Numbered from the stretch's first letter, positions 4,272 through 27,015 are shown. The stretch: 64,000 nt of DNA from an uncultured Candidatus Saccharibacteria bacterium (GCA_964351475.1 CAYGOB010000001.1:4459-68458); one strand, 5' to 3'. Program-made: numbers and translations. The notes: generated by a model from the sequence alone, not told the origin.

Positions 4272-4348
4272 ACAGGTCTATAAGGAACCAGAGGATAATG
4301 GCGGGATAAACACGCCTGGAATCTAAAGGGAGACAAATAAGACAGTAT
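4272..4348 (+). repeat. Interspersed promoter-bearing repeat, copy A.
   Basis: acaggtctataaggaaccagaggataatggcgggataaacacgcctggaatctaaagggagacaaataagacagtat. Lies 44 bp upstream of the tandem-repeat protein gene. Confidence 0.7.
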
Positions 4349-4391
4349 GGGAAAGTATGGAGATGTGTTATGTTTGTGATATAATACCCCT

Positions 4392-5351
4392 ATGGACAAT
4401 CTAGAAATGTTTGAATTTGAAACAAATAATGGAGATCAAGGGAATTTAAGTCTGAATCAGCAGTCTGAAATGACCTCCGAAATAGATTCTTCTTTAGCAT
4501 TTATCACGGAAAGTAAATATATATCCGAGGAAAGAGCTTTGGATGAAATAGAAAATCTTCTTTCAGAGGATAGTAGTAAATATTGGGTTGTAAGTGGATT
4601 GGCAGGTCTAGATTCAGAAAGGGCATGGAGAATCAGGGAGAGAGTTCTTTCAGAAACGGGGAAGAAGGGCCCAGTGGTAGCAGGCTTAGCGGGGCTGGAT
4701 TCAGAGAGAGCTTGGCAGACGAGAGAGAGATTTCTCTCCGAGGGAATTTTCAAAGGTTGGGTTGCTGAAGGTTTGGCAGGTGTTGATTCAGAGAGAGCTT
4801 GGCAGATGAGGGAAAGTATAATGGGAGGAAGCTGGTTAAATAGATATTGGATTTGGGTTGCGGGTGGTCTAGCAGGTTTAGATTCTGATCAAGCGTGGCG
4901 GATGAGAAAAAATCTAATGTCAAGGAGGATAAGTGGATCTTGGATGGCAAAGGGATTAGCAGGGTTGGATTCTAATAGGGCATGGAGGATGCGAAGAGAA
5001 CTTTTACGAAAGGGTGCAGACAAACGCTGGGTGGCCGGTGGTTTGGCAGGTTTGGACTCTGAGAAGGCATGGTGGATGAGAGAGAAGCTTATCGAAGAGG
5101 GAGCAGATAAAGATTGGGTAGCAAGGAGCTTAGCGGGTTTAGATTCAGAGAGAGCCTGGCAGATGAGAGAGAGATTTTTCTCTGAGGGTGTGCGCAAAGA
5201 CTGGATTGCACTTGGCTTGGCAGGATTGAACTCGGATAGGGCGTGGTTGATGCGAGAGAGACTCATCAAAGAGGGAGCAGATAGAGGATGGGTCGCAATG
5301 GGCTTAGTAGGAGAAGGTTCAACATTTGTATGGCAATTAAAGAAGACTTAG
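4392..5351 (+). CDS. Tandem-repeat protein: 8.5 copies of a 29-aa W-x-x-GLAGLDSERAW-x-MRE-x-L unit (87-bp period), probably alpha-solenoid. Family not recognised.
   Basis: Repeats are seen directly (VVSGLAGLDSERAWRIRERVL..., VAGGLAGLDSEKAWWMREKLIEEGADKDW, and so on) from about 4590 to 5351. Antisense ORFs 4457-4753 and 4889-5269 are repeat artefacts. The region is visibly G+C-richer than its flanks. Confidence 0.6.
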   Translation: MDNLEMFEFETNNGDQGNLSLNQQSEMTSEIDSSLAFITESKYISEERALDEIENLLSEDSSKYWVVSGLAGLDSERAWRIRERVLSETGKKGPVVAGLAGLDSERAWQTRERFLSEGIFKGWVAEGLAGVDSERAWQMRESIMGGSWLNRYWIWVAGGLAGLDSDQAWRMRKNLMSRRISGSWMAKGLAGLDSNRAWRMRRELLRKGADKRWVAGGLAGLDSEKAWWMREKLIEEGADKDWVARSLAGLDSERAWQMRERFFSEGVRKDWIALGLAGLNSDRAWLMRERLIKEGADRGWVAMGLVGEGSTFVWQLKKT

Positions 5352-5439
5352 ATGTTTGCGGTAATTGGTTTAACATTTACTTCCCGTAAGGTCCTAAAAT
5401 TCTAATAACAATCCACATAAGCATTCCTGAGTATATTAC

Positions 5440-5515
5440 ACAGGTCTATAAGGAACCAGAGGATGTGGTGGGACATATACGTCTGGAACCTAAAACGAGA
5501 CAAATAAGACAGTAT
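5440..5515 (+). repeat. Interspersed promoter-bearing repeat, copy B (orphan: no downstream + strand gene).
   Basis: acaggtctataaggaaccagaggatgtggtgggacatatacgtctggaacctaaaacgagacaaataagacagtat, followed by aaaaaagggggag. Confidence 0.7.
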
Positions 5516-5658
5516 AAAAAAGGGGGAGATTCTTGTCTAAATAATTCTTGTTTTTTATTATACCTTTATACACAAACACAAAATTCAAAATGTTAACTTT
5601 TTCTTTGCGTTTGATTCCGTCTAAACGGTTGATTTTTGTTATAGAAATTTAAGATACT

Positions 5659-5684
5659 AACCACTAGTAGGTGGTTTTTTAATT
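5659..5684 (+). terminator. Rho-independent terminator-like hairpin plus T-run.
   Basis: aaccactagtaggtggtt (7-bp stem, 4-nt loop) followed by tttttaatttt. Lies 145 bp downstream of repeat copy B and just outside the 3' end of the minus-strand permease gene. Confidence 0.5.
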
Positions 5685-5757
5685 TTAATAACAATATTAT
5701 GAGAAATGAAGGAACATTAAAAATAGTTAAAGAGATATATGCATCGAGAGTACGACC

Positions 5758-7623
5758 CTATTCATATCTTAAAGCATTAAGAGCTGATATCTTTTTAACT
5801 CTTCTAGCTGGGAATATACCAGTAATTAGACCTACAATTAGGGAAATAAGTAGTATTATTAGTACTAGGGAAATAGGAATGTAGGAGACATCAATACCTT
5901 CAAAACCTCTAAATGCTGAGAACATACTTAACAAAAGACTTAGTGATTTTCCACATAACCAACCCAAAATTAAACCTAGTACCCCTCCTATGAGTCCCAT
6001 AATCATAGACTCTGTAAGGAATAATTCAGATACTTCTTCGGCTTTCATTCCCATAGTTTTCATCAAACCAATTTCTCTAGTTCTTTCTAAAAGAGATACA
6101 GTCAAGGTATTAAACATACCTAAAGAAGCTACGGTTAATGCAATCATACCTACTATAGCTAAGATTATTCTAAATGTAGCAAAAAGAGATCTAATTTGTG
6201 ATACTGTATCAACCACGGACCTAGTAATATATCCCATGGACTCAATAGTATTTCTTGTACTTTCTAAATTATCTGTATCATTCACAACCACTCTTAACTG
6301 AGAATAGTTTGATATCCCTAACTGTCTTAAATCTACAAATGGGACATAAAATAATGGTGTAGACTCATCAGGTATTACACCCAAAATAGTATATTCAGTA
6401 GGTACAGACTCAATTTTCTCTATCTCACTTTCTAGTAAATCACCAACTACTACATATGTTACTTCAAATGTTTTACCTAAAGCATCATTTTCTTCCAAAT
6501 TTAACATCTTTAACATAGACCTGTTTACCACAGCCTCTCTTTCTCCATCAGGTAGTGCAACCCTCTTTAACTTGTATGTGGCTCCTGTTTCAAGCTCCTC
6601 TTCTATCTCTACCCAAGGAAGGGCATTTGTAATACCTAAGACATCTACATATCTTGGGACAAGCTCTTTTATTGTAAGCTCCGGAGTATTTTTGACATAC
6701 CCGACTCTTTGTACTTGCCTATTATTCGCCCTCTGCTCCATATATGTACCCTCACTCTCCTCCCACATATAGAATGTACCCTTGATGTAATCAAAATAAT
6801 CCTTCTTTATTAGTTCCCCATAACTTACACCTTCTACTCTTCTTGTATAACCAATTAATTCCTTTTCATCCTCCAAATTGTCATATACCTCTATCCAAAC
6901 TTCAGGGTCAATTTTGTATGACACATCATTTTCACCAACAAACTCAGATACTCCTTTAACCGCATCTGACTCCACTATCTCTACCACAGTATCATTACTC
7001 TCAAACAATTTACCACTTGTAGGTTGTAAAGCAGATTGTTTAAGATAGTCATGAGTTACTCCATACACAGCCATATCAGATACAGAAGATTTGTAATTCA
7101 CTCTCCCAACTACAGATATCAAAGGTAATGCCTGCTCTACATGAGGTAAATCACTTATTTGAGAAATAGTCCTATCATCAATGTTTAATAATCCTCCTGG
7201 TTGTACAGATACATCAGCTTGTCTCATCTCATTTAAACTCGCAACCCTAGTTATTACTAACTCCTGAAGTCCATATCCAATAGAGACTAAGAATACAATT
7301 GCCCCTATACTAACAGATATCCCCCCTATGGTAATAAGGGTTCTTGCTTTCTTAGCATTCATATTATGCAAAGAAAGCCTAATTAGTTCTAACCTTGATA
7401 TTGTCTCCCCATTATTACTATCTAAAAACTTTCTTAAGAACTCATATGCTGGATGAAATATCTCAGAGGCATCTTTTTTAACAATAGATTTAAATATTTT
7501 TGTGTTTAGTAAACTCTCAAAAAGAAAGATTGTAAGATACAAAATTAGAAGGATGATAAAGGATACAGAATGCCAGATACTATTAAGAATCTCTTTTGTT
7601 TTTACTAATACTTTTTCTCTCAT
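5758..7623 (-). CDS. MacB/FtsX-type ABC transporter permease with a large extracytoplasmic domain.
   Basis: C-terminal FtsX signature [34 protein letters not shown]-terminal TM, then a roughly 400-aa periplasmic domain, then 3 C-terminal TM helices. Start overlaps the stop of the upstream ATPase (ATGA). Confidence 0.85.
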   Translation of the reverse strand: MREKVLVKTKEILNSIWHSVSFIILLILYLTIFLFESLLNTKIFKSIVKKDASEIFHPAYEFLRKFLDSNNGETISRLELIRLSLHNMNAKKARTLITIGGISVSIGAIVFLVSIGYGLQELVITRVASLNEMRQADVSVQPGGLLNIDDRTISQISDLPHVEQALPLISVVGRVNYKSSVSDMAVYGVTHDYLKQSALQPTSGKLFESNDTVVEIVESDAVKGVSEFVGENDVSYKIDPEVWIEVYDNLEDEKELIGYTRRVEGVSYGELIKKDYFDYIKGTFYMWEESEGTYMEQRANNRQVQRVGYVKNTPELTIKELVPRYVDVLGITNALPWVEIEEELETGATYKLKRVALPDGEREAVVNRSMLKMLNLEENDALGKTFEVTYVVVGDLLESEIEKIESVPTEYTILGVIPDESTPLFYVPFVDLRQLGISNYSQLRVVVNDTDNLESTRNTIESMGYITRSVVDTVSQIRSLFATFRIILAIVGMIALTVASLGMFNTLTVSLLERTREIGLMKTMGMKAEEVSELFLTESMIMGLIGGVLGLILGWLCGKSLSLLLSMFSAFRGFEGIDVSYIPISLVLIILLISLIVGLITGIFPARRVKKISALNALRYE

Positions 7624-8363
7624 TGTTTAATCTTTCTTAGATTATTCATTACCTCTTTTGTATTTGTTTTTTCATACACCTTAATTATCTTCCCATCAAA
7701 CATACTAACAGTTCTCTTTGCGTATGATACGTACTCAAGATTGTGTGTAACCATAATCACAGTCTTTTTTTGCTTCTTGTTTAATTCTGTTAGTATATTC
7801 ATTAATTCTTCTCCAGATTGGTAATCTAAGTTACCTGTAGGCTCATCAGCAATAATTATCTCTGGATCGTTTACCAATGCTCTTGCAAGAGATACTTTCT
7901 GTTGTTGTCCACTTGATAGTTCTGAAGGTAGGTATTTGGACCAATCTGTCATTCCTAATTTGTCTATTTTTTCTCTAGCAATTTCCATACCTTTAGACCT
8001 TTCTTCTCCTAGTAGTAATAATGGAAAAAGTACATTTTCTTCTACAGGTATAGATTTGATCCAGTTGGTTTGTTGATATACCATACTAATATATTTTTTT
8101 CTTAATTTGTTTCTTTCTTCTTCTGTACTACCGTTGTAGAGGTGTTTACCTTTAAAAAAGATATTTCCTTTTGTTGGTTCTTCTAAGCCTAGTATTATGT
8201 GTAACAGAGTAGATTTACCACATCCTGATGGTCCGAATATTATAATAAAGTCACCATCTTGAATATCCAAAGATATGTCTTTTAATACAGGGATATCTTG
8301 GTCTCCAACGGTAAAGGATTTGTAGAGGTTTTTTATTTCAATTATTGAGTCAGTTTTCATCAT
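7620..8363 (-). CDS. ABC transporter ATP-binding protein (MacB/LolD-like).
   Basis: Walker [10 protein letters not shown]. Signature LSSGQQQKVSLARAL. Walker [13 protein letters not shown]-loop VTHN. Confidence 0.9.
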   Translation of the reverse strand: MMKTDSIIEIKNLYKSFTVGDQDIPVLKDISLDIQDGDFIIIFGPSGCGKSTLLHIILGLEEPTKGNIFFKGKHLYNGSTEEERNKLRKKYISMVYQQTNWIKSIPVEENVLFPLLLLGEERSKGMEIAREKIDKLGMTDWSKYLPSELSSGQQQKVSLARALVNDPEIIIADEPTGNLDYQSGEELMNILTELNKKQKKTVIMVTHNLEYVSYAKRTVSMFDGKIIKVYEKTNTKEVMNNLRKIKQ

Positions 8364-8443
8364 TCTTAATAATATATATGAATTATTGAATTAGGACAAG
8401 ATTTTAGTTTGATATTGTATACATTCTATAATATATTATATCT

Positions 8444-11400
8444 ATGATTAATGCCCTAAAAGAATATTTTTTAAAGCCAAGATTTCATATATCTAGGTTT
8501 GAGTTTAATTTAATAGGAACACTGTTTTTAACAATAGGATTGGTAGTAGGTACATATTTAGGATTGTACAATGTATTTAAGGGATTAAGAGCATTTAATG
8601 ATACTATACATGTATGGGAGTATAGTGAAGAGAATATATCAGAATATATATATGATGATAGTATAGTAGGTATTAATGATGAAGGATTGTATGCACCATC
8701 TAATAGGTTAGAGAATGGAGGGTTTGAGGAGGGGTTGGGGGGGTGGAGTAAGAAGGGAGAATATATCCTTAATGATGAATTTACTACAGATAGAGTAGCA
8801 GGAGAGGTAGATGGTACATCTGCTGAACCTACTGGGGGAACAAGGACGGTAATTGATTCGGAAGATTTTATTTCTATAGGAGAAGGAGTGTTAAATGTTG
8901 CGGGTGGAACTGGTACTGAAGGAGACCCAGGTCTTTGGTATCCCTTAGCAATAACCAGGATCCCAGGGAGAATGATTGTAGGTACAATAAATCTGTCAAC
9001 ATTAGGAAACACTCGTTTTGGTTTTGACCTTAACACAAGTGGAGGAATTAATTTTGGTATTAATTTTGGGAGTTCTAGTAGTTTGGCTCTTTACGATGGT
9101 TTATCTTCAGTAAACGTTGGGAGTGCATTATCTACTGATACGAATTATCAACTTGCAGTTATTTTACGTTCCACTGGTACATATTATTACATTAAGGGTG
9201 GGACTTTTGTTAACTGGACTCTATTATGGATAAGTGATAATGCCTCAAATAGCACTGTTTATCCCACAATTGTAGGTAGAACTGGAATTTTCACCGCTGA
9301 CAATATCCGTATCCCCACCCAAACCTGGCTACCTACCCCCTTAGTACATGATACATTTACAAGAGTTAATGGTAATGTAGGTAGTAGTGAAATAGTAGGG
9401 CCAGATGGACAAGAAACACCACAGTTACAATGGAGTTCAGGAGAGATAGAAGATAATAGGATGGTTATTAGACCAGAGTTAGGGGAGGAGGTTATCGTAA
9501 ATGGGGATATGTCTTCTTCAGAGGGTTGGAGTGTAGGTTCAGATTGGTCAATAGCCGACGGCATTGCTTCCAAAGTTGCTGGTACTACGAACCAGAATAT
9601 CTCCCAAGGTGTTCTTACTTCGGGATTATGGTACCAGGCAGTTTGGACACTAGAACGTTCAGCTGGTTCTTTCTGGGCCATGTTTGGTACAACTGCTTTG
9701 ACATATAGTCACACTACCTCTGGGACTTTTACTGAAACAGCACGGGCAAATGGGGGAACAGCAGGTATACGTGGACAATCTGTGGCGGAAGGCTCGGTGG
9801 ATAACGTCTCGTATAAACCCCTTACCCTCTCCTCCCTCTTTTCTACAGTTTCAACTTCGGATGCGGATGTGATTGCGGATGTTAATATAACAGTAACCGC
9901 AGGGACACAGGCGGGATTGGTACTGAATTTGGATAACACTTCAAGCCCTGCTAACTTCATCATTGTATATACAAATGGAACCCAAATCCGTGTAGATGAG
10001 GTTGTGAATGGTGTTTATACAAATAAACAGACTACATCATCCACTTTTACATCTGGGAATTTAAGAGTAATTAAAGATGGTACTAAATACAGAGTATATT
10101 ACAACAATGTATTGGTAGGTACTGAACAAACAATAACAGATGAAAGTATAATAAATAATACTAATCATGGACTATTTTCAACCTACGAAGGTAATAGCTT
10201 TGATAATTTTACAATATGGCCAAGAACAGGATTTACAGATGCACCATTTGAAGAATTAACACCAAGTATAGATACAGAAATAAAATACAAAGGTACTAAT
10301 TCAGTAAAACTTCAAACAGGGGGAGTGGATGCTAACTATTTACAAACAACAAACCTAGGAGATACAGAGATATATACATTAACAGGATATGCATATACAG
10401 ATGGTAGTGAAGTAAGTAGTGAAGATATTAGTTTGTATTATGATAATGACATACTAGAAACAAGATATATAGATATGGGAGAAGGATGGTATAAGTTAGA
10501 AGGAGAAGTAATAGGAGAGGATAGTGAAAAGAGTTTTGGAGTAAGAGTAAAAGCAAATAGGACAGTATATATAGATGAGTTTAGTTTGTATAGAAAGATA
10601 AATAGGATAGATAATGGTATGTTTATAAATGGGTTAGAGGGGTGGAATGAGCAATCACCTAGCGACATAGAAGATCTATTAACATGGATAGATTTTTCAG
10701 ACAAAGATACATTATTTATTAATACAGGGGGGACAACTCCTGTTAATGTAGACGGAGATTTAATATATAGGGTAGCAGATAAAAGTGATGGAAATGATTA
10801 TTGGTATGCTATTAGTGCTGGGGTAAGACCTGTATATAAGGAGAACCAGCTCAATGGATTAAGTGCAGCACATTTTCCTGCTGGAAATTATTTAAGAACG
10901 ATTAATAGTTATGGTACTTATAATAAATCCATATTTACAGTAGCAAGACTTTTAATAGATGAAAACAAAAGAAATCTTTACAACAGGGTGTCATATAATT
11001 TTTGGACGCGTGATGGTGCGATACATCTTGGCAGAGATAGCTATATATCTGTGCCTGCTGTTTCTGATACAAACTACATAATTACTGCTTTATGGGATAC
11101 AGGTTCTAATGCTAGGTTAAGGCTCAATCGGGGGATAGAAGAAGCTACAGGAATTGCGGAAGGTTGGGCTTCAAATTATATGTGGCATCTTATGTCTACA
11201 GCAGCTGAAGAAGGAGGAGAAGGATACATATATGAAAGCATTATTTATGACAGGATATTATCAATCGAAGAGTATACAGCAGTTGAGTCATATCTTAATA
11301 ACAAGTGGTTTCTAAACTCTTCTCTCTCAACCACCACCAAATACACCGGTCCCTCCTCCGCCCAACTTCAAACATCAGACTCTGATGCTACCTTCGTCCA

Positions 11401-14400
11401 ATACCTAAACCTAGCTAACACCGACACCTACACCCTTACTGCATACGCATATACAGACGGTAGCCCAGTAACAACCGATGACATTAATCTGTACTTTGAC
11501 AATGACATACTCCCTACAACCTTTTTAGATGCAGGTAATGGTTGGTACAAACTAACAGCTACTCTAACAGCAACAGACTCTTACAAAGCCTTTGGAGTAC
11601 AAGTAAAAGCAAACAAAACAGTAAATGTAGACAATTTTAGTTTAGACAGAGGAGAGCGATATGTAATATATACATCCAATGCATACACAAATGAAACAAT
11701 GACAAGTTGGGATACCTTCTGTGAAGGAGATTTGGAATACCAAACCTGTACCCCTGACTCAACACAAGAAGGCTACTCAGAAATCAGATACCAACTCTGT
11801 ACAGACGATGGGTCAGTGTGTGAAAGTGAAAACAAATGGCAATACTGGAATGGTACAGAGTGGGTAGTAGCAACTGATTTGGACATACACAACAACAGTG
11901 CAAGTGATCTAACCCAACAAGTAATGCAAACAATAGATACGGAAAACAAAAAACTCTCTGTTAAAACAATACTAACCTTTGATGGATACAATCCTCCCAT
12001 ATTACCTAAGGTATCCATAGGACTGAGTGCAGATACAATACCACCAGAGACAAATGCAAGTAACCTAATCATGAAAACACAACCAGGAGGAAGAACCATA
12101 ACTAACGAAGGCTGGAACAATACTCTAATGCCATACATTACCTGGACCCAAGGAGCAGACAACAAAGGAGGCTCAGGCCTTAAAGGCTACTGTGTATACC
12201 TAGGCCAAGATCAAACTGCAGACCCTCAAACTAGTAAAGGAATACTAGGAGAATCTCCAGTAGACTTAGAAACCTCCACCTGTGGATTCATAGTAGAGGA
12301 TAATATACTAGATCTAAGTAATACAGACTACCATTCAGAACCATGGCTAACTAGTTCAACAGAACCCTACTACCTAAAAGTAAAAGCCATAGACAGAGGA
12401 AACAATGTGTACGAAGGAGAAAGTGAAACCTTTACATTCTACATAGATACAACACCTCCTACTAATGTATCCTTCCTTTCTTGTGCTTCAGGTAATTTCT
12501 CTAATGCTTTGGATATGAATTTCTCTTGGCCAACAACAGCAGGCCCAGAAGCAAAAGATGATTACTCAGACATACTAGGTTGGCAATACAAGCTTAATGA
12601 TATTAATGCACAGTGGAAAGGTACTCAAACACACACAGGATTAGAAATTGAATACATACCTCTTGGTCAATCAATATATACCCTTAAACAAAGTGATGCA
12701 GAAACAATCATATCAGGAAGTAATGTAGTTTACTTTAGAAGTGTAGACAATGTAGGTAACTTTTCATCAGGAGCAACCATTAGAACATGTAGCATATCCT
12801 ACGGAGGAGCAGCTCCTAACTTTGAAGATACAGACAAAGTAACAATTACTCCTAATATATCCCAAGACAACCAATACTCTTTAAGCTGGCCAAGTGCCAC
12901 CCCCGCTCCAGAAACCCAAGTATCTAAATACTACTACATGATAAATACAGCTCCTCCCTCAACACTTTCAACCTTAGAAGCAAACCCAGCAACATACATT
13001 AACAATTCAACATCAACAGCAGTACCTTTAAGAGCACTCCCTAATGTAAACAAAGGAGTAAATACAGTGTATGTAGTTTCTGTAGATAACAGTGAGATAC
13101 CTAACTACTCTCCAAGTAATTACATAACAGGAACATTTACTCTTAATTCAACAGACCCAGACAATGTAGGAGATTTAGTAGCATCAGACTCATCCATAAA
13201 GTTAAAATCTCAATGGAATGTAACCCTAACTTGGGTAGTACCAGAATACAAAGGAGCAGGTAATTTAACGTATGAGATATACAGGTCAACTAATGGAGTA
13301 GACTTTACACATGTGGGATCAACCTCAGGACTTTCATATGTAGATAGTGCACCTCAGTCACGTATGTATTTTTACAAGGTATATACTAAAGACGGAGCAA
13401 ATTCTTTAAGTTCAGGGAGCAATGCAGTATCCATAACACCAACAGGAAGATGGACAACGCCACCAGAACTCATATCCGAGCCTGAGGTAGAGAATGTAAC
13501 AACACAAAGAGCAACGATAGTGTGGTCTACATCTAGGTCAGCAGACAGTAGAATTCAGTTTGGAACACAGAGTGGTAAGTATGCAGATGTAGAACCTTCA
13601 ACACCTAATCATGTAACCTCTCATGTAATGTCTCTTTCAGGATTAACCCCTAATACAACATATTTTTACAGAGCAAAATGGACAGATGAGGATGGTAATG
13701 TAGGTATTTCAGAAGAAAAAACATTTACAACAGCACCACCACCGGTAATTAAACAAGTAGAAGTAAGAAATATTGGATTAGAGTCTGCAGTAGTTAACTT
13801 TACATCAGAGGGAGCTTCGGGAGTTAAGATATATTACGGAAGAACATCCTCTTTTGGGGGAATTAGAGAGATATCAACCTCTAGTTTAGAGTCTACCTAT
13901 TCAGTAGAACTCTCTGATTTAGAGGACGGTACTAGATATTACTTTAAGATTAATACTTTAGATGTGGATGGTAGTGAATACGACAACCAGGTTAACGAGT
14001 TCCAAACCTTACCTCGTCCTCGAGTAAGCAATGTAAGATTACAACAGGTATCAGGTACAGCACAAAGTACAATACTAGTAACATGGGATTCAAATACAGA
14101 GATATCATCCATAGTGACATACTGGCCAGAAAACAATCCATCTCAAGCAAGAGATGAGGTATCAGTAGAGTTAAAGAAAGGAGAACACAGAATGATGATT
14201 AGAGGATTAGAACCTACAACTGCATACAATCTCCAAGTAAAAGGAAGAGACAAGATGGGTAATGAGGCTGTATCAGATACCCAAAGATTTACAACAGCAA
14301 CAGATACAAGACCTCCAGTAATTACAGATTTAAGAGTAGAAGGTTCAACCATCCCTCCATTTGCAACAACAGCCCAACAGACCTCAGTACAGATAGTGGT

Positions 14401-16128: not shown

Positions 16129-16150
16129 CATAAATAGGGTAGTGTGATAT

Positions 16151-18514: not shown

Positions 18515-19393
18515 ATGCAAAAAACAAACAAGAATAAAGAGATGACCAAGTTAGAAACAGTACTAATTATTTTGATAGCCATAGCAACTATTGGATCATT
18601 TCTGGCAGGAAGGGCAGTAGCAGAACAACATGAGGGTACTCCTAAAGCAGATTCAACCTCAATAATAAAACAACTATCCGATGACCTTACAGCACTAGGA
18701 TACGGTTCAACTGAACCAGGTAGTTGGGGCAATGCTGGTGAAATGTGGAATAGGATATATTCAGCAGGAGTATGGGTACCATCTTTAGCAGATGCTCAGG
18801 ACTCAGATGTAGTATCTGGAAAACAATTCTATTCAGGCTCTGACCGCACATTGAGAACAGGCTCTTTTCAAACTATAGATTGGGAGAAACAATCTCTACT
18901 TCAAATGGATAACAGGGATAGTACAGACTATGGAGAGACAAGTAGTTGGGACAAGACTAATAATAGCCCAGAGGTTTGGTATGATGAGGTAACAGGTTTG
19001 TATTGGAGTGCAAGTCAGGGTAGTATGGCAAATGATTTTGTAAGGTCTACCTGTGATTTTTACACTACAGTCCCAAGAGGAGATTATAATGGGGGGGATG
19101 AGAGTTGTGATGCCGCAATAAATCATTGTGCAACATTGAGCCTAGCTACACATACAAATGCTTCAGCAAAGACAGATTGGTATTTACCATCTCAGATAGA
19201 GTTAATGCAGGCATACATAAATGGAATATACAAGAAGACCAGTACTGGTTGGGTTACTACAAGCCAATTTTGGTCTAGTACCGAGTTTCAGAGTTATCCT
19301 ACTATTGCATGGGGCACTTACCTAGGTAATGGACAGACGAGCCCTCATACTAAGACCACGAGCCTCGCTGTTAGGTGTGTTCTCCGGGATTAA
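18515..19393 (+). CDS. DGR target (variable) protein: signal-anchored, with a C-terminal DUF1566 (Lcl-C / C-type-lectin-like) domain carrying the variable region.
   Basis: DUF1566 signature DWYLPSQIELMQAY...FWSSTE...AWGTYLGNG...TSLAVRCVLRD. The track ORF starts at 18335 inside repeat copy G, so the start is more likely the M at 18515 (MQKTNKNKEMTKLETVLIILIAIATIGSFLAG). The last 123 nt are homologous to the TR. Confidence 0.8.
   Translation: MQKTNKNKEMTKLETVLIILIAIATIGSFLAGRAVAEQHEGTPKADSTSIIKQLSDDLTALGYGSTEPGSWGNAGEMWNRIYSAGVWVPSLADAQDSDVVSGKQFYSGSDRTLRTGSFQTIDWEKQSLLQMDNRDSTDYGETSSWDKTNNSPEVWYDEVTGLYWSASQGSMANDFVRSTCDFYTTVPRGDYNGGDESCDAAINHCATLSLATHTNASAKTDWYLPSQIELMQAYINGIYKKTSTGWVTTSQFWSSTEFQSYPTIAWGTYLGNGQTSPHTKTTSLAVRCVLRD
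19267..19389 (+). other. DGR variable region (VR) at the 3' end of the target gene.
   Basis: 123-bp homology to 19721-19843. About 19 of 20 mismatches fall at positions that are A in the TR. The last 41 bp (19349-19389) are identical to the TR. Confidence 0.85.
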
Positions 19394-19483
19394 ATACTAT
19401 AGGGCGTTTGGTTGTGGGTATTTTAAATATTTCCCCTTTTTCTTTTTGTAATACCTATTTTAAAATCAAAACAACGCCCGATT

Positions 19484-19505
19484 TACAGTGTATTTATACA
19501 CTGTA
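19484..19505 (+). terminator. Perfect 9-bp palindrome hairpin downstream of the VR (tacagtgta-ttta-tacactgta) followed by an AT-rich tract.
   Basis: Seen directly. Weak intrinsic terminator for the target gene, or the DGR VR-proximal structural element. Confidence 0.35.
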
Positions 19506-19720
19506 ATTTAAAATTTAAAAAATTCCTTGCAACATACTAATTAATATGCAACAATTATCATAAGCAAGATCTTACAATCTCAACTCCAAAGATGAGCAAT
19601 GGGTTGTGAGGGAGGCATAATATTTAATCCTACTTGCTGTACCTATTAGGTAATGTTATACAAAGAATCTTCTGTTTAATACATCAGGTTCTTGGTGGAT
19701 TTAAAAATTAGCAAGTTTAG

Positions 19721-19843
19721 ATTTTGGTCTAGTACCGAGAATCAGAATAATACAACTAATGCATGGAACACTAACCTAAATAATGGAAATACGAACAATA
19801 ATACTAAGACCACGAGCCTCGCTGTTAGGTGTGTTCTCCGGGA
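19721..19843 (+). repeat. DGR template repeat (TR).
   Basis: Homologous to the VR. The TR is dense in AAT/AAC codons and reads FWSSTENQNNTTNAWNTNLNNGNTNNNTKTTSLAVRCVLRE in the VR frame. Track ORF 19692-19892 is this TR, not a gene. Confidence 0.85.
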
Positions 19844-19852
19844 GAAGATATT

Positions 19853-20215
19853 ATGCCTCAGGCAAATAATACAGACAAACCCTTATATTTAGCTGTGTAC
19901 AAGCTCATTATCTATCTGTATAGTATAGTTCACAATCTTCCAAAAGAACATAAGTATAGATTAGGAAATGACATCATAGACATTAGTTGGAAGACCCTAG
20001 ATTCCATAATGTACACAAATACATTAGGAAACGAAGATAAACATATCCAGATAAAGAAAACCTTAGCAATATTTAATACCTTAAAATATAGGTTAAGGGT
20101 TTTAAGTGATTTAAAACTCTTAAGTCATAGGCAATATGCACACATAATTAAACAAACGGTAGAAATAAATAAAATGCTAAGGGGTTGGTACAATTGGTCT
20201 AAAAAACTTGTATGA
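19853..20215 (+). CDS. avd: Avd-like accessory variability determinant (small four-helix-bundle protein).
   Basis: About 121 aa, basic and helical (YKLIIYLYSIVHNLPKEHKYRLGNDI...LKLLSHRQYAHIIKQTVEINKMLRGW). Sits immediately 3' of the TR, the position typical of DGR avd. Start chosen at the M after a GGGAGAAG SD-like stretch. Confidence 0.55.
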   Translation: MPQANNTDKPLYLAVYKLIIYLYSIVHNLPKEHKYRLGNDIIDISWKTLDSIMYTNTLGNEDKHIQIKKTLAIFNTLKYRLRVLSDLKLLSHRQYAHIIKQTVEINKMLRGWYNWSKKLV

Positions 20216-21382
20216 GTCTTGAGGTTCTAAATAGGACTTCAGTATCCCAAAATGCTTTTCATATATATTCTTCCTTAAACGATACGAGTTACTCCATCTT
20301 AGGTGTCCAAAAGTAGAGTTAATACTTGTACAGATAGATTCAAGATCTTCTTTAGAAGGAGGTAATTTAATCTGGACAGCCTCTTCAATACAAAAACGTC
20401 TGTTTATGAGAAAACCGTTATTAAAGTAATGTAATTTTTTCTTCAGATTTCCAACTGTCCTGTTTCTGGATAGTATATATTCTGGTCTAATAACATATCC
20501 TACAAAATCAATCCCCTGATACACGCTACCATAGGTGGTTTTTTCTTTCTTTGTATTTAGTTTTAATTTTTCTAAAAGAAAATTCTCTGTTAGTTTCTCT
20601 GCTTTTTGTAATTCTTTTATGTTATTACTAATCAAAAGCATGTCATCGGCGTATCTTAAATAGTATTTGATTTTTAATTGACGCTTAATGAATTGATCTA
20701 CTTCATTTAGATACAAATTAGCAAAAAACTGTGAAGTCAAGTTCCCTATAGCTAAACCTTTCTTTTTGGGTATAGTAAAGAGGCTTTTACCTTTGGGTAG
20801 AAGCTGTAAGAGTGTTTTGTCTCCCTGTAATTCGAAGTCTTGGCAGGGGTTGTGATAAATGATCTTCATAGAAAGCCACGTTAGGTCGTCAATATCTTTT
20901 GTTGGCATAGGAAGTTTTGAGAGATCCTTCAAAAGTATTTGAGCAAGTATATCTTTATCTATGGAGTAGAAGAAACTTCTAATATCCATTTTAAGGTAAT
21001 ATGCTTTAGAGGTATTATTATGTGTGATCTTATTAAGAAAACTAGATGTTCGTTGAACACCTAGTAAGCCACCTTTATTTTTTCTACAAGCAAGAGAGTC
21101 AAAGATAAATTTTTTATCTATTTCATCTTGAATGTACATGATTAGTAAGTGATGAATAATTCTGTCGTTAAAGTAGGCGGCAAATATTTCACGAATGGTA
21201 GGGTAAGATATTACAAAGCATGAGGAGGTCCCTATTTCATAACTTTTTTCTCTGAGAGCAGTTGATAGGATGTGGAGGGTGTCTTCATAATCTAATTCAC
21301 AATAGAGTGCATGATTACTATTTCTTTTGCCTTTTCTACAAGAATAATATGCTCTAAGTAAGGATGAGAGATTAAAAATCAT
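20177..21382 (-). CDS. DGR reverse transcriptase.
   Basis: RT motifs: LAIGNLTSQFFANLYLNEVD (the DGR-specific I/LGxxxSQ motif 4, in place of the group II intron QGxxxSP) and YLRYADDMLLI (YADD catalytic box). 401 aa. Adjacent to the TR/avd. Confidence 0.9.
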   Translation of the reverse strand: MIFNLSSLLRAYYSCRKGKRNSNHALYCELDYEDTLHILSTALREKSYEIGTSSCFVISYPTIREIFAAYFNDRIIHHLLIMYIQDEIDKKFIFDSLACRKNKGGLLGVQRTSSFLNKITHNNTSKAYYLKMDIRSFFYSIDKDILAQILLKDLSKLPMPTKDIDDLTWLSMKIIYHNPCQDFELQGDKTLLQLLPKGKSLFTIPKKKGLAIGNLTSQFFANLYLNEVDQFIKRQLKIKYYLRYADDMLLISNNIKELQKAEKLTENFLLEKLKLNTKKEKTTYGSVYQGIDFVGYVIRPEYILSRNRTVGNLKKKLHYFNNGFLINRRFCIEEAVQIKLPPSKEDLESICTSINSTFGHLRWSNSYRLRKNIYEKHFGILKSYLEPQDSYKFFRPIVPTP

Positions 21383-21534
21383 CTCTGATATTATATCATT
21401 AGGTCCTTGGGATTAACACAAAACTAATTTTCTTCTATTTGCCGTACTCTATTTTTAAAAAGACTCAATGTGTTAAACTCTATATAGTCTGTATTCTTGT
21501 CTTTTAAGCGATCTAATGCTAAACTTTTTCTAAC

Positions 21535-24500
21535 ATGAAAAAACCTGTCCGGATAAATATAAAAATACCAGCATTAACGTTACTCCTCTTCGCTATTATA
21601 GGTATATCAATATTCTTCCTCTCCAGAGTATATGCTACCAACCAAACTCCAATTAAAGGAAGTGCTACTGTACTAAATACCTCTAATGAAATATTCTTTA
21701 CCTCTAGTGTATATGGAGCTAACGTAGTAATATCGGATCCAGACCCCGAAGATGAAAACAAACGTACAATCTCTGGATATGCATGGTCTCAAGATATTGG
21801 GTGGATAAAGTTTACTGCAGGAGAATCCCCTGGGGTATTTGTAGATTATGCAACAGGACAAGTAAGTGGTTCTGCCCATGTAATGAACACAGGTAATGAA
21901 ATTAAATTTGATTCTAACAACAGTAATACAATTGTTAATACAAATACTGGAGTATTTAGTGGATATGTTTGGTCTGAGGATGTAGGGTGGATAGATTTGG
22001 GAACAGACCAAGTATATGTCCAAGACACACTACCTCCTCACAACCCAGATGAAATATCAATATATTCAGATGGAAGTAGAACAAAAGAGATTGTGATTTT
22101 GGAAGGAAATGTTTACAACTACAGTAATCCCCATATAGAGTGGGAAGAACCCATAGATCCCAGCACAGAATCTCACGGTTATCAGTCTAGTGGCATATCA
22201 GGATACTACGTATATTGGGGGCCAAGTAATACAGCTATACCCACAAGCTCAGGTACTTTTCAAACAGATAATTACATAGATGTAGAAGTAACCCAAAGTG
22301 GTATGCACTACTTAAACATTCAAGCAGTAGACAATCACGGAAATATACATACCAATCCTGAACATGAATATACTGTTTTAGAGTACAAAGCAGACATTAT
22401 TCCCCCAACCAATGTTAAATACATAACTACACCAAGTGGAAATTTTGGAAATGTTAATGACATGTTCTTTAGTTGGCCAAGTGCTCCAGGAGTAGCAAGC
22501 AGTGATGAAAATGGAATACTCGGATGGCAGTACAGTCTTAACGATGTCAGCAGTTGGACAGGAACCCACGAAAGTGAAAGATTTGACCTTGAGTACATAC
22601 CATTTGAAGATACTACCTACTCCCACTACTTTACAGAAGAAAAAGACCTGGGAAATATGGTAGTAGGTAACAACATCATATATTTTAGAACCATAGACAA
22701 TGCAGGCAATTTTAGTGGGTATATATCTGGAGGAATCTCATACGGAGGTTTGGCTCCTACCTTTGGAGAAGAACACAATGTGACTGTAACTCCCAACACC
22801 AACACCTCTAACGAATTCTCTCTCTCATGGCCCTCTGCCACACCAGAGGAGGGAAGAACCATAGTCTCATATTACTATATGATAAATAGAACACCTCCTA
22901 GCACATACAATACTTTAGTAGACAACCCCTCTCTTTATGTCCCTGTTACAACAACATCTGTATCTACAAGGATGTTAAACGGAGCCGTAAAAGGAAGCAA
23001 CACAGTATATGTCGTAGCTGTAGATGACTTAGATGGATACTCTCCAAGCAACTTTATTACTGGCACATTTACCCTTAACAGCACTCTCCCAGACCCTGTA
23101 ATTAACCTAAGTATAGCAGACACCTCAATACGTGAAGCCAAACTATGGAGAGCAAGTTTAACTTGGGAGGCTCCTGCTTACAAAGGAGATGGTAACCTCT
23201 CCTACGTTATACAAAGAAGCCTAAATGGTAGTACATGGGCTACGGTAGGTTCAACAACAGGAACGTCATTTTCTGACATTGTCCCAGAAAGTAGAACATA
23301 CTATTACAGAATAGGGGTCTCTGATGGTTCTGACCAAAGCATAGCAAATCCAACCCCCTCAACCACAGTATCCTCCTTTATTCAAGGAAGATACACAGAA
23401 GCACCAGAGTTACTCTCTGGAATCATAGTATCTAATGTCGGAACAAGAAAAGCTACAATATCGTGGGTAACAAGTAGAGAAAGTGATACTAAAATTGCAT
23501 TCGGACTAAGTAGTAATGACTACTTTGAAGAAGAAGTATACAGTTCAAAACAGGTAACAGAGCATGAAATAACGCTACATAATCTCCAACCTGAAACGAC
23601 ATACTACTTCAAAGCCAGATGGACAGACCAAGACGGCAATACAGGAGAAAGCAAAGAAGTCTCCTTTAGAACAACTGACTCTCCCCAAGTTTACTCTTCA
23701 AATGTAGATATGGTTGGGCTAGATTATGCCATAATATCCTTTGAGGTCTTTGGTGCTAGCAAAGCAGCCGTAGTATATGGAAGGTCTCTAGCATATACAG
23801 CAATTGAAGAGATAAACACCTCTCCTGCAAGAAGCAAATACTCTGTAGTTTTGGAAGACCTAGACGATGGGGTTGAATACAATTTCAAAATTAGGTTAAC
23901 AGATGCAGATGGATATATCTATGACTCCATAGAAAACAACGTCTTTAGAACACCTCCTAGACCACAGATATCGAATGTACGAGTACAAGAATTAAGAGAG
24001 GTAGCAAGTCCCACAGTCGTATTTAGTTGGGAAACAAATACACATACTAACTCAATAGTTAGATTTAGAGAAGATTTTGAAGGTGCAAGAGAAAGAGACC
24101 AAGTAAGTATGGAAAAAATAAAGGGAGAGCATGAGATGACATTAACAGGACTGGATTCAGAAACCCCATATATTGCCTATGTAGAAGGAGTAGATGACTA
24201 TGGTAACAAAGCAGTATCCGAGGGCGTGAGATTTACTACCGATGTAGATACCAGGCCGCCTAAAATATTGAATGTGAAAATTGAGCAGGACTTACAAGGT
24301 CGCTCTGTACAAACTGACAGAAGCAGAAGTGCCCAATTCATTATTAGTTGGGAAACGGATGAACCAGCAACAAGCAAGATAAATTATGGAGAAGGAGGGG
24401 GAGGAGCATATACCTCTAGTTCAAGATTAGACCAAGAGTACAGAATGAAACATCTTGTCATAGTATCTGGTCTAACACCTTCAAAAGTATATAGTTTAGA

Positions 24501-24630
24501 AATTGAATCCACCGATCCATCAGGAAACACAGGCAGATACGGTCCACTAGTATCCATAACTCCAAAATCTGCTAATACTGTTTTAGAAACAATACTCAAT
24601 ACTATGTCAAATATGTTTAATATATTCTAA
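21535..24630 (+). CDS. Large (1031 aa) secreted Fn3/PAP-N-repeat surface protein, paralogous to the C-terminal half of ORF 8444-14692.
   Basis: Signal anchor (ALTLLLFAIIGISIFFL). Collinear similarity to 8444-14692, for example IPPTNVKYITTPSGNFGNVNDMFFSWPS...GWQYSLND...YFRTIDNAGNFS...SYYYMINRTPPSTY...TGTFTLNST, and four ATISWVTSRESDTKIAFG-type domains. Its stop overlaps the start of the downstream ABC gene. Confidence 0.8.
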   Translation: MKKPVRINIKIPALTLLLFAIIGISIFFLSRVYATNQTPIKGSATVLNTSNEIFFTSSVYGANVVISDPDPEDENKRTISGYAWSQDIGWIKFTAGESPGVFVDYATGQVSGSAHVMNTGNEIKFDSNNSNTIVNTNTGVFSGYVWSEDVGWIDLGTDQVYVQDTLPPHNPDEISIYSDGSRTKEIVILEGNVYNYSNPHIEWEEPIDPSTESHGYQSSGISGYYVYWGPSNTAIPTSSGTFQTDNYIDVEVTQSGMHYLNIQAVDNHGNIHTNPEHEYTVLEYKADIIPPTNVKYITTPSGNFGNVNDMFFSWPSAPGVASSDENGILGWQYSLNDVSSWTGTHESERFDLEYIPFEDTTYSHYFTEEKDLGNMVVGNNIIYFRTIDNAGNFSGYISGGISYGGLAPTFGEEHNVTVTPNTNTSNEFSLSWPSATPEEGRTIVSYYYMINRTPPSTYNTLVDNPSLYVPVTTTSVSTRMLNGAVKGSNTVYVVAVDDLDGYSPSNFITGTFTLNSTLPDPVINLSIADTSIREAKLWRASLTWEAPAYKGDGNLSYVIQRSLNGSTWATVGSTTGTSFSDIVPESRTYYYRIGVSDGSDQSIANPTPSTTVSSFIQGRYTEAPELLSGIIVSNVGTRKATISWVTSRESDTKIAFGLSSNDYFEEEVYSSKQVTEHEITLHNLQPETTYYFKARWTDQDGNTGESKEVSFRTTDSPQVYSSNVDMVGLDYAIISFEVFGASKAAVVYGRSLAYTAIEEINTSPARSKYSVVLEDLDDGVEYNFKIRLTDADGYIYDSIENNVFRTPPRPQISNVRVQELREVASPTVVFSWETNTHTNSIVRFREDFEGARERDQVSMEKIKGEHEMTLTGLDSETPYIAYVEGVDDYGNKAVSEGVRFTTDVDTRPPKILNVKIEQDLQGRSVQTDRSRSAQFIISWETDEPATSKINYGEGGGGAYTSSSRLDQEYRMKHLVIVSGLTPSKVYSLEIESTDPSGNTGRYGPLVSITPKSANTVLETILNTMSNMFNIF

Positions 24631-26777
24631 TGCCAAAAAAGAAACTAATAAGTGTTAAAAATATAAATAAGAGCTTTCTCCTAGGTAAAAGAAGAAACAA
24701 TGTTCTTAAAGATATAAATCTAGATATCTATTCTGGTCAACTAACAAATATCTTTGGACCATCAGGATGTGGTAAATCTACACTTCTAAACGTCATCATG
24801 GGTATAGAGAAGCCAGATACAGGCATTGTAAAGATACATGACGAAGATCTATGGAAGAAAAACACCGACGAACAAGCAGACATAAGAAAAAGAGAAATTG
24901 GAATAGTATATCAACAACAAAACTGGGTAAGGTCATTGACAGTCATAGAAAACGTTGCTCTTTCTGCACAGCTCTTAGGGTTTGGTAAGGCAGAATCCTT
25001 ACAAAGGGCACAAGAGGTATTAAAAGAAGTGGGAATGTTTAAATTTAGAAACTTCTACACCTCAGAACTCTCCTCAGGAGAACAACAAAGGGTTGGTTTA
25101 GCAAGAGCCCTCATAGCCGACCCAGAAATTATCCTAGCAGATGAGCCAACAGGGAACCTGGATACAGAAAATGGGGATGAGGTTGTTAAAATATTGAAGA
25201 GTTTAGCTAAAAAAGGCAAAGCTGTAGTTTTAGTAAGTCACAATCCCGAATATTTGGACACTTCTGACACTATAGTAATTATGAAAGATGGCTATATCAT
25301 TGACTCTCTCAAACAACAAGAGGGAATTGTAAAAAAAGTTAGAACTATTTTAGCCCAAACAGAATTAAACAACGAAGAGAAAATCTTTGAAAATGCTAGG
25401 AGCAAACCAAACATATCTCAACCATACTATCCCACAGAAACCCTATTTGAGAAAATCAAAGTATATTCTAGGTTAATTTACAGCTTCTTTTACAAATCTT
25501 TGCTACTTTTTGTAATATCTGCTCTTACAATTTTCAATCCTACTAAAGCAGAAGAATTTAGAAAGAAAGCAACTGTTACAGGGGAGAATAATATCCCTAT
25601 CCTAGATCTAACAGAGCTCTCTTTTAAAAACCTTTTCTTTAAAAAATTCAGAACGGTAGTAACAATATTGGGAGTAGGATTAGGTACGGGTTTTGTAGTT
25701 TTACTTCTCTCACTGGGTTACGGTATGGAGAGGTTAGTTATTGATCAGATAACAGCGGCAGAAGACTTAAGTCAGGTTGATGTTTTTCCTAAAGTTGGAA
25801 GCCAATTAGAACTAACCGATGCACTTATTGAGAAGATTGCAGGTATATCTGGAATAGATACAATATATAGAATAAAAAACTTCCCAGGGAGGATAGATTA
25901 CAAAGGCTCTACAGTAGATGTAGTAGTGTATGGAGTAGAGTTTGAATATTTAGAAAATTCTCCTGTTAGAAAAGTGGCAGGTGAATTCTTAGAAGAAGAG
26001 TCAGACAAATACTCTGCAATTGTTAACAAAGAATATGTTGATTTACTAGGGTTGTTGGGGGATGACGTAGTAGGAGAGAGATTAGATTTAAGTGTCATTC
26101 AGTCCATGCCACAGGAAGACAGTGAGCCTCAAAACATTCTAGCCCAGGTATTAGGTGTTGTTGAAGATGATTCTCCTCCTGTCGTATATCTTAAAATGGG
26201 CTCAGTTAGGGACTATACCACTGATGAGTATTCTGAATTGACAATAGTTGTTAACAGAGATGTTTCCTTGGAGGTAGTTAGAAAGCAGATAGAGTCTTTA
26301 GGGTTAGAGACTTTTTCTGTAATGGATACAATAGAGCAAGTACAAAACATTTTCACCTATGTAAGATATGGGTTGTTAGGTTTTGGGGTATTGGCTTTTG
26401 CCATAGCATTTTTAGGTATGATAAATACATTGGTTGTTTCATTACTTGAAAGAACTAGAGAGGTTGGGTTATTAAAAATTATTGGTATGAAGAGAAATGA
26501 TATTAGGTTTTTGTTCATAATTGAGTCTATGTTTATTGGACTTTTGGGGGGTATAACAGGTGTTATTCTGGGTGTTCTTGGTGGATATTTAGTATCTATA
26601 CTGATATATCTTTTCTCAATGTCAAGAGGTGTAGAGTTTATGATAATTTCATCTTTCCCCCTCCTTATGATGATACTTGTTGTTTTTTGTACAACGATGT
26701 TAGGTTTCTTTACAGGTCTTTACCCAGCAAATAGGGCTGTTAAGATACCTCCTCTTGATGCAATTAGGTATGAGTAA
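24630..26777 (+). CDS. MacB-type ABC exporter, fused ATPase plus FtsX-permease.
   Basis: N-terminal Walker [10 protein letters not shown], signature [15 protein letters not shown], Walker [13 protein letters not shown]-terminal FtsX signature [31 protein letters not shown]. Translationally coupled to the upstream gene (TAATG). Confidence 0.85.
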
Positions 26778-26988
26778 AGAGTTTATGAACGGATTAGATT
26801 GTTTTAAACTATACCTGTACGATAGAAAGAACTTTTAGTTAGGGTACATAAGGCTTTCACCTTCGAACCGAGAGCTCTTAAAAACATCTCTTTTTTGACT
26901 ATTTTCATCCACCAGACCTTATTTTTGAGAACATCTCTTTTTTAGCATTAAATAACTCAATCCCCATAAGGGTTTTAAAACATAGTGT

Positions 26989-27015
26989 ACAGGTCTATAA
27001 GGAACCAGAGGATAT
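26989..27015 (+). repeat. Left-half-only copy (H) of the interspersed repeat, directly abutting the 3' end of tRNA-Asp.
   Basis: acaggtctataaggaaccagaggatat, then tggcgg, which is the reverse complement of the tRNA CCGCCA 3' end. Confidence 0.6.

Follow-up and report, generated by a model that had tools for sequence, protein, structure and literature searches.

Co-oriented repeats beside tRNA-Asp in a Dojkabacteria genome are probably the recombination junctions of an integron-like gene-cassette array

Bacteria of the candidate phyla radiation have genomes of 0.6 to 1.2 Mb with few recognized mobile elements, and how they acquire accessory genes is poorly understood. The question is raised by a 64-kb stretch of DNA deposited under Candidatus Saccharibacteria (GCA_964351475.1, CAYGOB010000001.1:4459-68458; here called the window, with positions counted from its first letter), in which a short repeat recurs among genes of unrelated function, always in the same orientation. 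The original prediction, made from the sequence alone, described a 77-bp repeat carrying a sigma-70-like promoter and a shared leader and proposed a portable promoter module or small mobile element. Its tie to mobile accessory genes was confirmed, whereas a sigma-70 promoter as the defining function of the repeat was not. We conclude that the repeats are probably the recombination junctions of a gene-cassette array, integron-like in organization and anchored at tRNA-Asp, rather than portable promoters.

Repeat, pattern, and profile searches detected seven plus-strand copies and one decayed copy, all inside 4268-27021, in agreement with the predicted interspersed family of uniform orientation. 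The profile matches, all on the plus strand, lie at 4268-4360, 5428-5533, 14815-14914, 16041-16140, 16448-16509, 18331-18406, and 26977-27021 (left half only); the decayed remnant (15438-15467, repeat family D6) and a left-half copy at 26958-27022 were delimited by repeat search. The 25-nt repeat core had four matches in the window at up to three mismatches (0.00 expected). Including 13 kb upstream on the source contig (ENA k141_612511), 77 kb were surveyed, and the profile search detected no copy in the 27- to 64-kb part of the window or in the 13 kb upstream. Every window copy thus falls within 23 kb on the 3′ side of a tRNA-Asp gene. Spacing is irregular and the units are whole genes, which rules out an array of clustered regularly interspaced short palindromic repeats (CRISPR), as had been argued from the start. 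The repeating unit proved longer than 77 bp: its left arm (L arm) reaches approximately 155 to 170 nt at the tRNA-proximal copy (26860-27015). This copy, listed as a half repeat at 26989, is indeed a half but not a random truncation, since its final TGGCGG (27016-27021) is the CCGCCA 3′ end of tRNA-Asp(GTC) (27016-27092, minus strand), the attachment site (attB)-like anchor of the array.

The same arrangement recurs in other genomes, at loci numbered with the prefix L below. The core pattern matched 28 loci in about 20 metagenome-assembled genomes of Candidatus Dojkabacteria, some of them labeled Saccharibacteria or Patescibacteria, and the host genome of the window is itself a member of the Dojkabacteria, within the candidate phyla radiation. 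A second scan, by a motif of the leftward extension of the L half, added 82 metagenome loci, mostly from anaerobic digesters and activated sludge. Junction DNA was also sought in phage records and viral contigs, where none was found, and the core pattern had no match in a viral contig. By profile search, 262 element copies were found in 102 loci, and in none of these loci did copies occur on both strands.

The tRNA anchor is shared as well. Twenty element-bearing loci hold tRNA-Asp; 15 of them have the L arm directly at the tRNA 3′ end, and the element is antiparallel to tRNA-Asp wherever both are on the map. All junctions share the TGGCGG core, whose reverse complement, CCGCCA, forms the 3′ end of tRNA-Asp and, in other lineages, of tRNA-Ser. 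Beyond the tRNA, most of the loci that hold it have a syntenic flank (Trx, Sua5/TsaE, TsaD, and often GGDEF), among them the window, L001, L007, L027, L074, L083, L093, and others, whereas the genes on the array side differ in almost every locus. The sequence that follows the L arm and TGGCGG was the right-hand (R) core in 153 cases, tRNA-Asp 3′-end sequence without a tRNA called by ARAGORN in 33, intact tRNA-Asp in 15, intact tRNA-Ser in 4, and a third type of arm in 12. Approximately 30 of the 33 tRNA-Asp 3′ sequences are 24-nt fragments with a single breakpoint, GGACTCGAAC|, after which a different conserved arm begins; in the remaining cases the tRNA is truncated at the end of a contig or is a different tRNA. 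The internal junctions of the window bear the R-core 24-mer, which is only tRNA-like: it agrees with tRNA-Asp at 17 of 25 positions and with a tRNA fragment in L117 at 19 of 25. The idea that the R part is a true tRNA 3′ half or a split tRNA was rejected; ARAGORN and Rfam find no tRNA there, and the similarity past TGGCGG is not significant.

What lies between the repeats behaves as a set of exchangeable units. Across loci, the interval between copies has a median of 1,038 bp, and 98 of the 149 gene-bearing intervals (160 intervals in total) contain a single open reading frame (ORF). Of these single genes, 54 run along the element and 44 opposite to it, and the minus-strand cassette genes are real genes (Inositol_P, adh_short, nucleoside deoxyribosyltransferase, and methyltransferases). 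Fixed orientation of the element combined with free orientation of the genes is the behavior of a recombination site, unlike that of a promoter. The cargo is of accessory type, including AbiEii toxin, methyltransferases, short-chain dehydrogenases/reductases, HD-domain proteins, sortase, and a diversity-generating retroelement (DGR). Variation among relatives, which the original prediction named as a check, was evident: array content differs from locus to locus, and cassettes reappear elsewhere in a new order and with new neighbors, among them those encoding inositol monophosphatase, LD-carboxypeptidase, an HD-domain protein, an AbiEii pair, a DUF5674 pair, and a radical-SAM protein.

The anatomy of the junctions locates the point of exchange. 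The best-conserved block, TGGCGGGACATACACGTCTGGAACCTAAAATGAGACAAA..AGACAGTATAAAAAGG, is at least 90% identical over 62 copies. The L half is more variable than this block and occurs in several discrete variants; it reaches leftward up to approximately 170 nt, and this extension has two conserved blocks, CTTAGAACCA and TTTCATCCACCAGGCCTTA, as well as a small hairpin. The L arm spans 30 to 170 nt and contains GGTCT..GGAAC, and the right-hand arm consists of the 24-mer (GACATACACGTCTGGAAC-type) and a leader ending in AAAAAGGGG. A 235-bp mini-cassette in L007, L027, L011, L018, and L080 is bounded by a direct duplication of TTGAAAATGGCGGGACATACACGTCTGG. To locate the exchange, cassettes that share at least 96% identity in their bodies but occur in different contexts were compared (11 left-junction and 13 right-junction pairs). 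At left junctions, identity in the L arm was 0.48 (positions -60 to -31) and 0.50 (-30 to -1), close to the random-pair baselines of 0.51 and 0.60, whereas the 24-mer (+7 to +24) and the next 30 nt of leader (+25 to +54) reached 0.97 and 1.00 (baselines, 0.70 and 0.41). At right junctions the pattern was the opposite, with 0.88 and 0.86 in the two L-arm segments but 0.62 in the 24-mer and 0.34 in the leader. The L arm is therefore unlinked from the cassette to its right, with which the 24-mer and leader travel. This linkage at both junctions defines a cassette as 24-mer and leader, gene or genes, and L arm, with partners swapped within the 6-bp TGGCGG. Exchange at this core explains the composite nature of the 77-bp unit, the occurrence of lone halves, and the tRNA-proximal half copy, in which the tRNA replaces the right-hand partner. 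A crossover at GAAC|C in the T-loop, prompted by the tRNA fragments, was rejected as the general exchange point because the 24-mer moves with the right-hand cassette and not with the L arm.

As a separate observation on the L arm, its extension (window 26860-26912, minus strand, and approximately 35 other L arms) contains a degenerate minus-strand frame, MK(I/R)VKKEMFLRALGSK..., preceded by AAGG..GGTGG. It may be what remains of the 5′ end of an ancestral gene; alternatively, it may serve minus-strand cassette genes as a start signal. As a maintained gene, the conserved peptide (MK.VKKEMFLRALGSK) was rejected: the frames are broken at varying positions and have lengths of 1 to 133 aa.

Which enzyme might act at these junctions? 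Clustering of ORFs over all loci detected a 433-aa large serine recombinase (LSR; Resolvase, Recombinase, and zinc ribbon) in or beside the arrays of six loci, with a fragment in a seventh; LSR genes lie in or next to arrays at L056, L066, L070, L086, L088, L102, L111, L113-L116, and L127. Wherever tRNA-Asp is on the map, the LSR is transcribed toward it. The family is very large in Patescibacteria, with at least 8,000 candidates at E values below 1e-30, the best 120 of which are 62 to 96% identical. In the 724-kb Dojkabacteria genome JBMNHC01 and in L113, L114, and L116, an LSR module ends in L arm, tRNA-Asp, and Sua5, the order of the module being ParB-methyltransferase, small protein, TerL-like protein, restriction-modification genes, LSR, and a few further genes; in JBMNHC01, the cassette array L014 lies just distal to this module. 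Four genomes outside the Dojkabacteria (L117, L124, L125, and L126) encode a 65%-identical LSR, followed 0.3 to 1.5 kb on by a homologous L arm (blocks CTTAGAACCA ... GGGTCTTG..GNAAC ... TGGCGG) that abuts the 3′ end of tRNA-Ser. L117 also contains a tRNA 3′ fragment followed by the R leader AAAATGAGACAAATGGGACACTATAAAAAAGGAG, and a contig in IMG/VR carries LSR, L arm, TGGCGG, and a tRNA-Asp fragment in this order. This synteny of LSR and L arm identifies the L half of the window repeat as the recombinase-proximal attachment (att) arm of a Patescibacteria family of LSR elements, and from it we infer that the LSR may move recombinase-less cassettes.

Two further observations concern LSR genes. 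A four-gene module recurs across Patescibacteria classes at more than 60% identity, comprising a ParB_N-N6_N4 methyltransferase, a protein of approximately 135 aa, a TerL-like protein of approximately 500 aa (Terminase_6C), and the 433-aa LSR (L111, 35-11308; L113, 172-11302; L117, 4187-11308; also L123-L126). Restriction-modification or defense genes usually lie between TerL and LSR, and capsid genes were not seen in the stretches read. A different LSR gene, encoding 597 aa (L037, 7748-9589), terminates within or at tRNA-Val(tac), next to tRNA-Leu(gag). The same tRNA pair is found in the window at 31122-31295, which suggests that integration also has a hotspot beyond the Sua5/TsaD block. The 597-aa LSR was rejected as the enzyme of the arrays; it sits at tRNA-Val, across the tRNA-Asp locus, and is apparently part of a separate element.

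We propose that the cassettes are stacked in tandem at the tRNA-Asp 3′ end and that each repeat is the joint of two neighbors. A cassette would comprise the right-hand arm, one or a few genes in either orientation, and the L arm; a junction would take its left half from the cassette on the left and its right half from the cassette on the right, with the swap at TGGCGG. The array is probably driven by a serine recombinase, judging from gene neighborhoods, and the LSR would act in trans on cassettes that carry no recombinase. The R leader is a putative source of a ribosome binding site (RBS) or leader for plus-strand cassette genes. We infer that the window array may still be active. More tentatively, and with less than even confidence, we suggest that Patescibacteria possess an integron-like capture system of different chemistry. 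An LSR encoded in a ParB-methyltransferase/TerL-like module would insert recombinase-less, single-gene cassettes of approximately 1 kb in trans through a bipartite, double-stranded site (L arm-TGGCGG-R arm), both at the CCGCCA end of tRNA-Asp or tRNA-Ser and at existing junctions. Such a system would build the main flexible-gene locus of the genome, and the R arm would double as leader and RBS.

Several findings weigh against a recombinase-built array with exchange at TGGCGG. No recombinase of any kind is encoded in the 64-kb window or the 13 kb upstream, and most arrays are without the LSR. Dyad symmetry such as that of known LSR att sites is not obvious in the junction, in which the block conserved at 90% or more spans approximately 57 bp and the repeats seen on inspection are direct (GGTCT..GGAAC twice) and not inverted. 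Past the core, the similarity of the R part to the tRNA-Asp 3′ half is not significant (P ~ 0.1). The approximately 30 displaced tRNA fragments all break after GAAC, 24 nt from the core. Exchange at TGGCGG does not explain these breaks, which suggest that crossover has a second position or that an older mechanism was involved. In a 99%-identical cassette pair (L003 versus L005), the R leader has diverged further than the body, suggesting gene conversion among junctions. Finally, contig misjoins or homologous recombination in shared arms could mimic part of the exchange-point signal: the comparison loci are mostly short-read metagenome contigs, many of which end inside the element, so some changes of context could be assembly artifacts or products of homologous recombination.

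In an alternative view, no dedicated recombinase operates today: the junctions would be intergenic modules kept by conservation, or scars of old att sites, and cassettes would be shuffled only by RecA-dependent homologous recombination between them after DNA uptake. The arms are long (up to 170 plus 60 nt) and similar enough for homologous recombination, recA is present in the window (35369-36412), most arrays have no recombinase nearby, and some cassette pairs have mosaic arms. We nevertheless regard this explanation as unlikely. Exchange is confined to a few bases, between L(-1) and position +7 of the 24-mer, rather than spread over a 170-nt arm, and L(-60..-31) is still linked in 10 of 13 pairs. 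The mini-cassette, with an L arm of only approximately 12 nt, recurs in several contexts. Precise fusion to the 3′ ends of two tRNA species and the synteny of LSR and L arm across classes also argue for site-specific recombination, at least at the origin of the arrays. A portable sigma-70 promoter with a shared 5′ leader and RBS in the right half, driving the plus-strand gene downstream, seems to us distinctly improbable. Four or five window copies do lie 40 to 120 nt ahead of plus-strand genes, as had been claimed for every full copy, but the 5440 copy is followed by minus-strand MacB/ABC (ATP-binding cassette) transporter genes and the 16053 copy by only an 80-aa minus-strand ORF. A Shine-Dalgarno (SD)-like AAAAAGGGGGAG with ATG or GTG 4 to 8 nt on is common, and the R leader is more than 90% conserved over approximately 55 nt, both of which favor a promoter-leader module. 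However, GGGACA and TAAAAT are separated by 15 nt and not by the 17 to 18 bp originally given, a consensus scan called this promoter in no copy, and promoter-like matches in the region show no excess over shuffled expectation. Many downstream genes have their own TGnTATAAT beside the ATG, several of them as an extended -10 element 6 to 7 nt before it (e.g., 4375-4385). A complete R part can lie directly against the 3′ end of a minus-strand inositol-phosphatase gene, SD-like tail included, and 44 of the 98 single-gene cassettes are antisense to the element. A portable promoter does not account for the L half, the tRNA-Asp fusion, or the strict co-orientation within each locus.

Two further explanations were weighed. 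A classical integron, or a cluster of attC sites lacking an integrase (CALIN), with attC sites and an IntI tyrosine recombinase, would account for co-oriented sites, mostly single ORFs approximately 1 kb apart, accessory and toxin-antitoxin cargo, and the frequent lack of an adjacent integrase, as in CALINs. It is refuted on attC structure, and we give it very little credence. Neither DNA strand of the repeat folds into a hairpin (z-scores, -1.1 to +0.9), and RNAalifold on 45 distinct copies returned seven pairs with no compensatory change and a covariation term of -0.03 kcal/mol, so that the fold and covariance analysis proposed in the original prediction revealed no structure. What is conserved is sequence, not structure, and the array is anchored at a tRNA 3′ end. 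Inspection of the window copies revealed no GTTRRRY/RYYYAAC core sites. A phmmer search of six-frame ORFs from the window and 110 loci (733 kb) had no IntI-type, XerD-like match at E values up to 10, although its sensitivity is limited by the single E. coli XerD query; in the window, no XerD-like or Hin-like protein is encoded. Equally remote is a selfish repeat resembling repetitive extragenic palindromic (REP) sequences or miniature inverted-repeat transposable elements (MITEs), or a structured small RNA. The element is short, intergenic, and multicopy, but its copies are clustered in one 23-kb array of the 77 kb surveyed and not scattered regardless of context as a plain REP or MITE would be. 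It has no terminal inverted repeats or palindrome, and it is conserved across species along with the tRNA anchor. Rfam reports only tRNAs at gathering thresholds and nothing at E values up to 1 in the 14.7- to 18.5-kb region, and covariation is absent as noted above.

Other candidates were rejected. A structured RNA or riboswitch was discarded on the unremarkable folds of both strands, the lack of covariation, and the lack of an Rfam match. A T-box (UGGC pairing with the tRNA NCCA end) was discarded for want of a stem I or any structure and because none of the genes has to do with amino-acid metabolism. A Xer/dif-like site was also set aside; the vicinity of the arrays yielded no Xer-like protein, and the repeat is unlike dif consensus sequences. 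Two observations on expression signals stand beside these tests. The consensus scan detected minus-strand promoter-like sites in or just after the R leader (window 18416-18387, 5539-5511, and 14926-14897), with a -35 element from TGTCTC and a -10 element TATACT from AGTATA, which face the junction and the previous cassette. Plus-strand cassettes often have a mini-ORF of 4 to 10 codons (ATG TCT ... TGA) past the SD-like tail, whose stop overlaps a TGATATAAT box 5 to 7 nt before the real ATG (e.g., L009, 1700-1740; L024, 7660-7700; L027, 2158-2100, minus strand; window 4360-4394). This arrangement could represent a leaderless promoter or termination-reinitiation.

A recombination-junction array of this kind shares features with several known systems. 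As in integrons, cassettes are in tandem and mostly of one gene, sites are co-oriented, cargo is accessory or toxin-antitoxin in type, arrays often lack a recombinase gene, and each junction is a hybrid of the sites of two cassettes. In contrast to integrons, whose attC is recognized as a bottom-strand hairpin, the sites described here do not fold, the array is anchored at a tRNA 3′ end instead of attI, no IntI was found, gene orientation is approximately random, many cassettes have their own TGnTATAAT, and the candidate enzyme is an LSR.

Features of tRNA islands are also present: abutment of the tRNA 3′ end with a conserved opposite flank, displaced tRNA fragments in related loci, and an integrase in some arrays. 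The tycheposon islands of Prochlorococcus are tRNA-anchored islands formed by successive integrations; a minority of tycheposon-type elements use large serine recombinases, and one or two elements per genome are reported (bioRxiv 10.1101/2020.12.28.424599), compared with up to seven junctions in 8 kb here. Both systems are adjacent to a tRNA in a streamlined genome, with newer integrants pushing older ones outward, scattered partial tRNA copies, and cargo without its own integrase. They differ in that the units described here are recombinase-less, single-gene cassettes of approximately 1 kb, each with both conserved arms, and in that the junction is a conserved composite of 80 to 250 bp and not a simple partial tRNA. 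The serine-recombinase candidate, the 6-bp core at the very end of the tRNA, and the candidate phyla radiation host are further differences.

The CIMEs (cis-mobilizable elements) of the Streptococcus thermophilus ICESt family are att-bounded elements without recombination genes that occur in tandem with an integrase-bearing element and are in principle mobilizable in trans. Compared with CIME accretion, the Dojkabacteria arrays have no conjugation genes, are far longer, are made of far smaller units, and involve a different recombinase family. Phage-type large serine integrases (phiC31, Bxb1, and A118) act on sites of 40 to 50 bp with dyad symmetry and a 2-bp crossover, and both integration at the extreme 3′ end of a tRNA and repeated, array-forming integration are unusual for them. 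The LSR described here resembles them in its Resolvase, Recombinase, and zinc ribbon composition, in the position of its gene beside one att arm, and in its module with a TerL-like protein and a ParB-methyltransferase; the junction differs in having no evident dyad symmetry and a far longer conserved arm. A description of this cassette system was not found in the literature.

Together, these results suggest that in Dojkabacteria the flexible genes are gathered in a single cassette array at tRNA-Asp; among their products are surface proteins, ABC exporters, a DGR, sortase, toxin-antitoxin pairs, and small-molecule enzymes. The homology of the L arm suggests that other Patescibacteria may do likewise at tRNA-Ser. 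If the conserved serine recombinase is the enzyme, the system would be an independently arisen functional analogue of integrons that uses double-stranded, sequence-defined sites, of interest to genome evolution and to the development of recombinase tools. The junction sequence is in addition a practical probe for recovering Dojkabacteria accessory genes from metagenomes.

Read on this basis, the window array appears to consist of six cassettes between 4361 and 26859, one of them holding a whole DGR, separated by plus-strand junctions numbered from the distal end. Junction J1 (4268-4360), the most distal detected, has an L arm, core TGGCGG (4299-4304), and a diverged R part. Cassette 1 (4361-5427, plus strand) encodes a 319-aa protein of 87-bp coding repeats (4392-5351) with its own TGTGATATAAT 6 nt before the ATG. 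J2 (5409-5533, family D5) has an L arm with part of the leftward extension, the core variant TGGTGG (5466-5471), and an R part with SD-like tail. Cassette 2 (5534-14814, genes on both strands) carries a MacB-like permease (5758-7623, minus), an ABC ATPase (7620-8363, minus), and a 2,082-aa fn3 surface protein (8444-14692, plus). J3 (14815-14914) has an L arm, the core variant TGATGG (14852-14857), and an R part, and is followed by cassette 3 (14915-16040, plus), in which a NUDIX gene (14949-15431) and an RNase T/Orn-like exonuclease gene (15503-16042) flank the decayed junction at 15438-15467. J4 (16041-16140) has an L arm, core TGGCGG (16079-16084), and an R part; the interval after it (16141-16447) contains only the 80-aa minus-strand ORF. 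J5 (16448-16509) combines a degenerate L arm and core TGGCGG (16472-16477) with an R part truncated after the 24-mer. Cassette 5 (16510-18330, both strands) encodes a sortase (16576-17172, plus) and an ice-binding-like protein (17266-18231, minus). J6 (18331-18406) has core TGGCGG (18342-18347) and a full R part without an L arm. Cassette 6 (18407-26859, both strands) contains the DGR, a 1,031-aa fn3 protein, and a fused MacB ABC transporter (24630-26777). J7 (26860-27021) has a full-length L arm with blocks CTTCGAACC, TTTCATCCACCAG, CCCCATAAGGG, and ACAGGTCT..GGAACC and ends in the TGGCGG core that is fused to tRNA-Asp. The conserved flank past the tRNA consists of Trx (27142-27465, minus), Sua5/TsaE (27541-28629), and TsaD (28601-29731).

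The DGR (18371-21382) is complete within its one cassette, with an Lcl_C target (18371-19393), bAvd (19829-20215), a reverse transcriptase (20177-21382, minus), and a 134-nt repeat pair (19267-19400 and 19721-19854, family D7) that is 84% identical and probably represents the variable and template repeats. Proteins of 87-bp (29-aa) coding repeats with the motif ...LAGLDSERAWQMRER... are encoded both in cassette 1 (4392-5351) and at 58166-59452 (minus), the latter a paralogue far outside the array; Pfam assigns neither to a family above threshold. In L117 (BOKR01000001.1, a non-Dojkabacteria member of the Patescibacteria), an apparent second small cassette array lies at another tRNA-Ser (17170-19647, minus; tRNA-Ser(gct), 15758-15843). 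There, an R-type leader stands beside a 68-nt tRNA 3′ fragment, whose T-loop, TTCCAGA, fits the R core of the window better than does tRNA-Asp. Elsewhere in the window, three to four tandem units of approximately 124 bp (49548-49920; families D8, D9, D12, and D16) lie between a 973-aa plus-strand ORF and a 174-aa minus-strand ORF.

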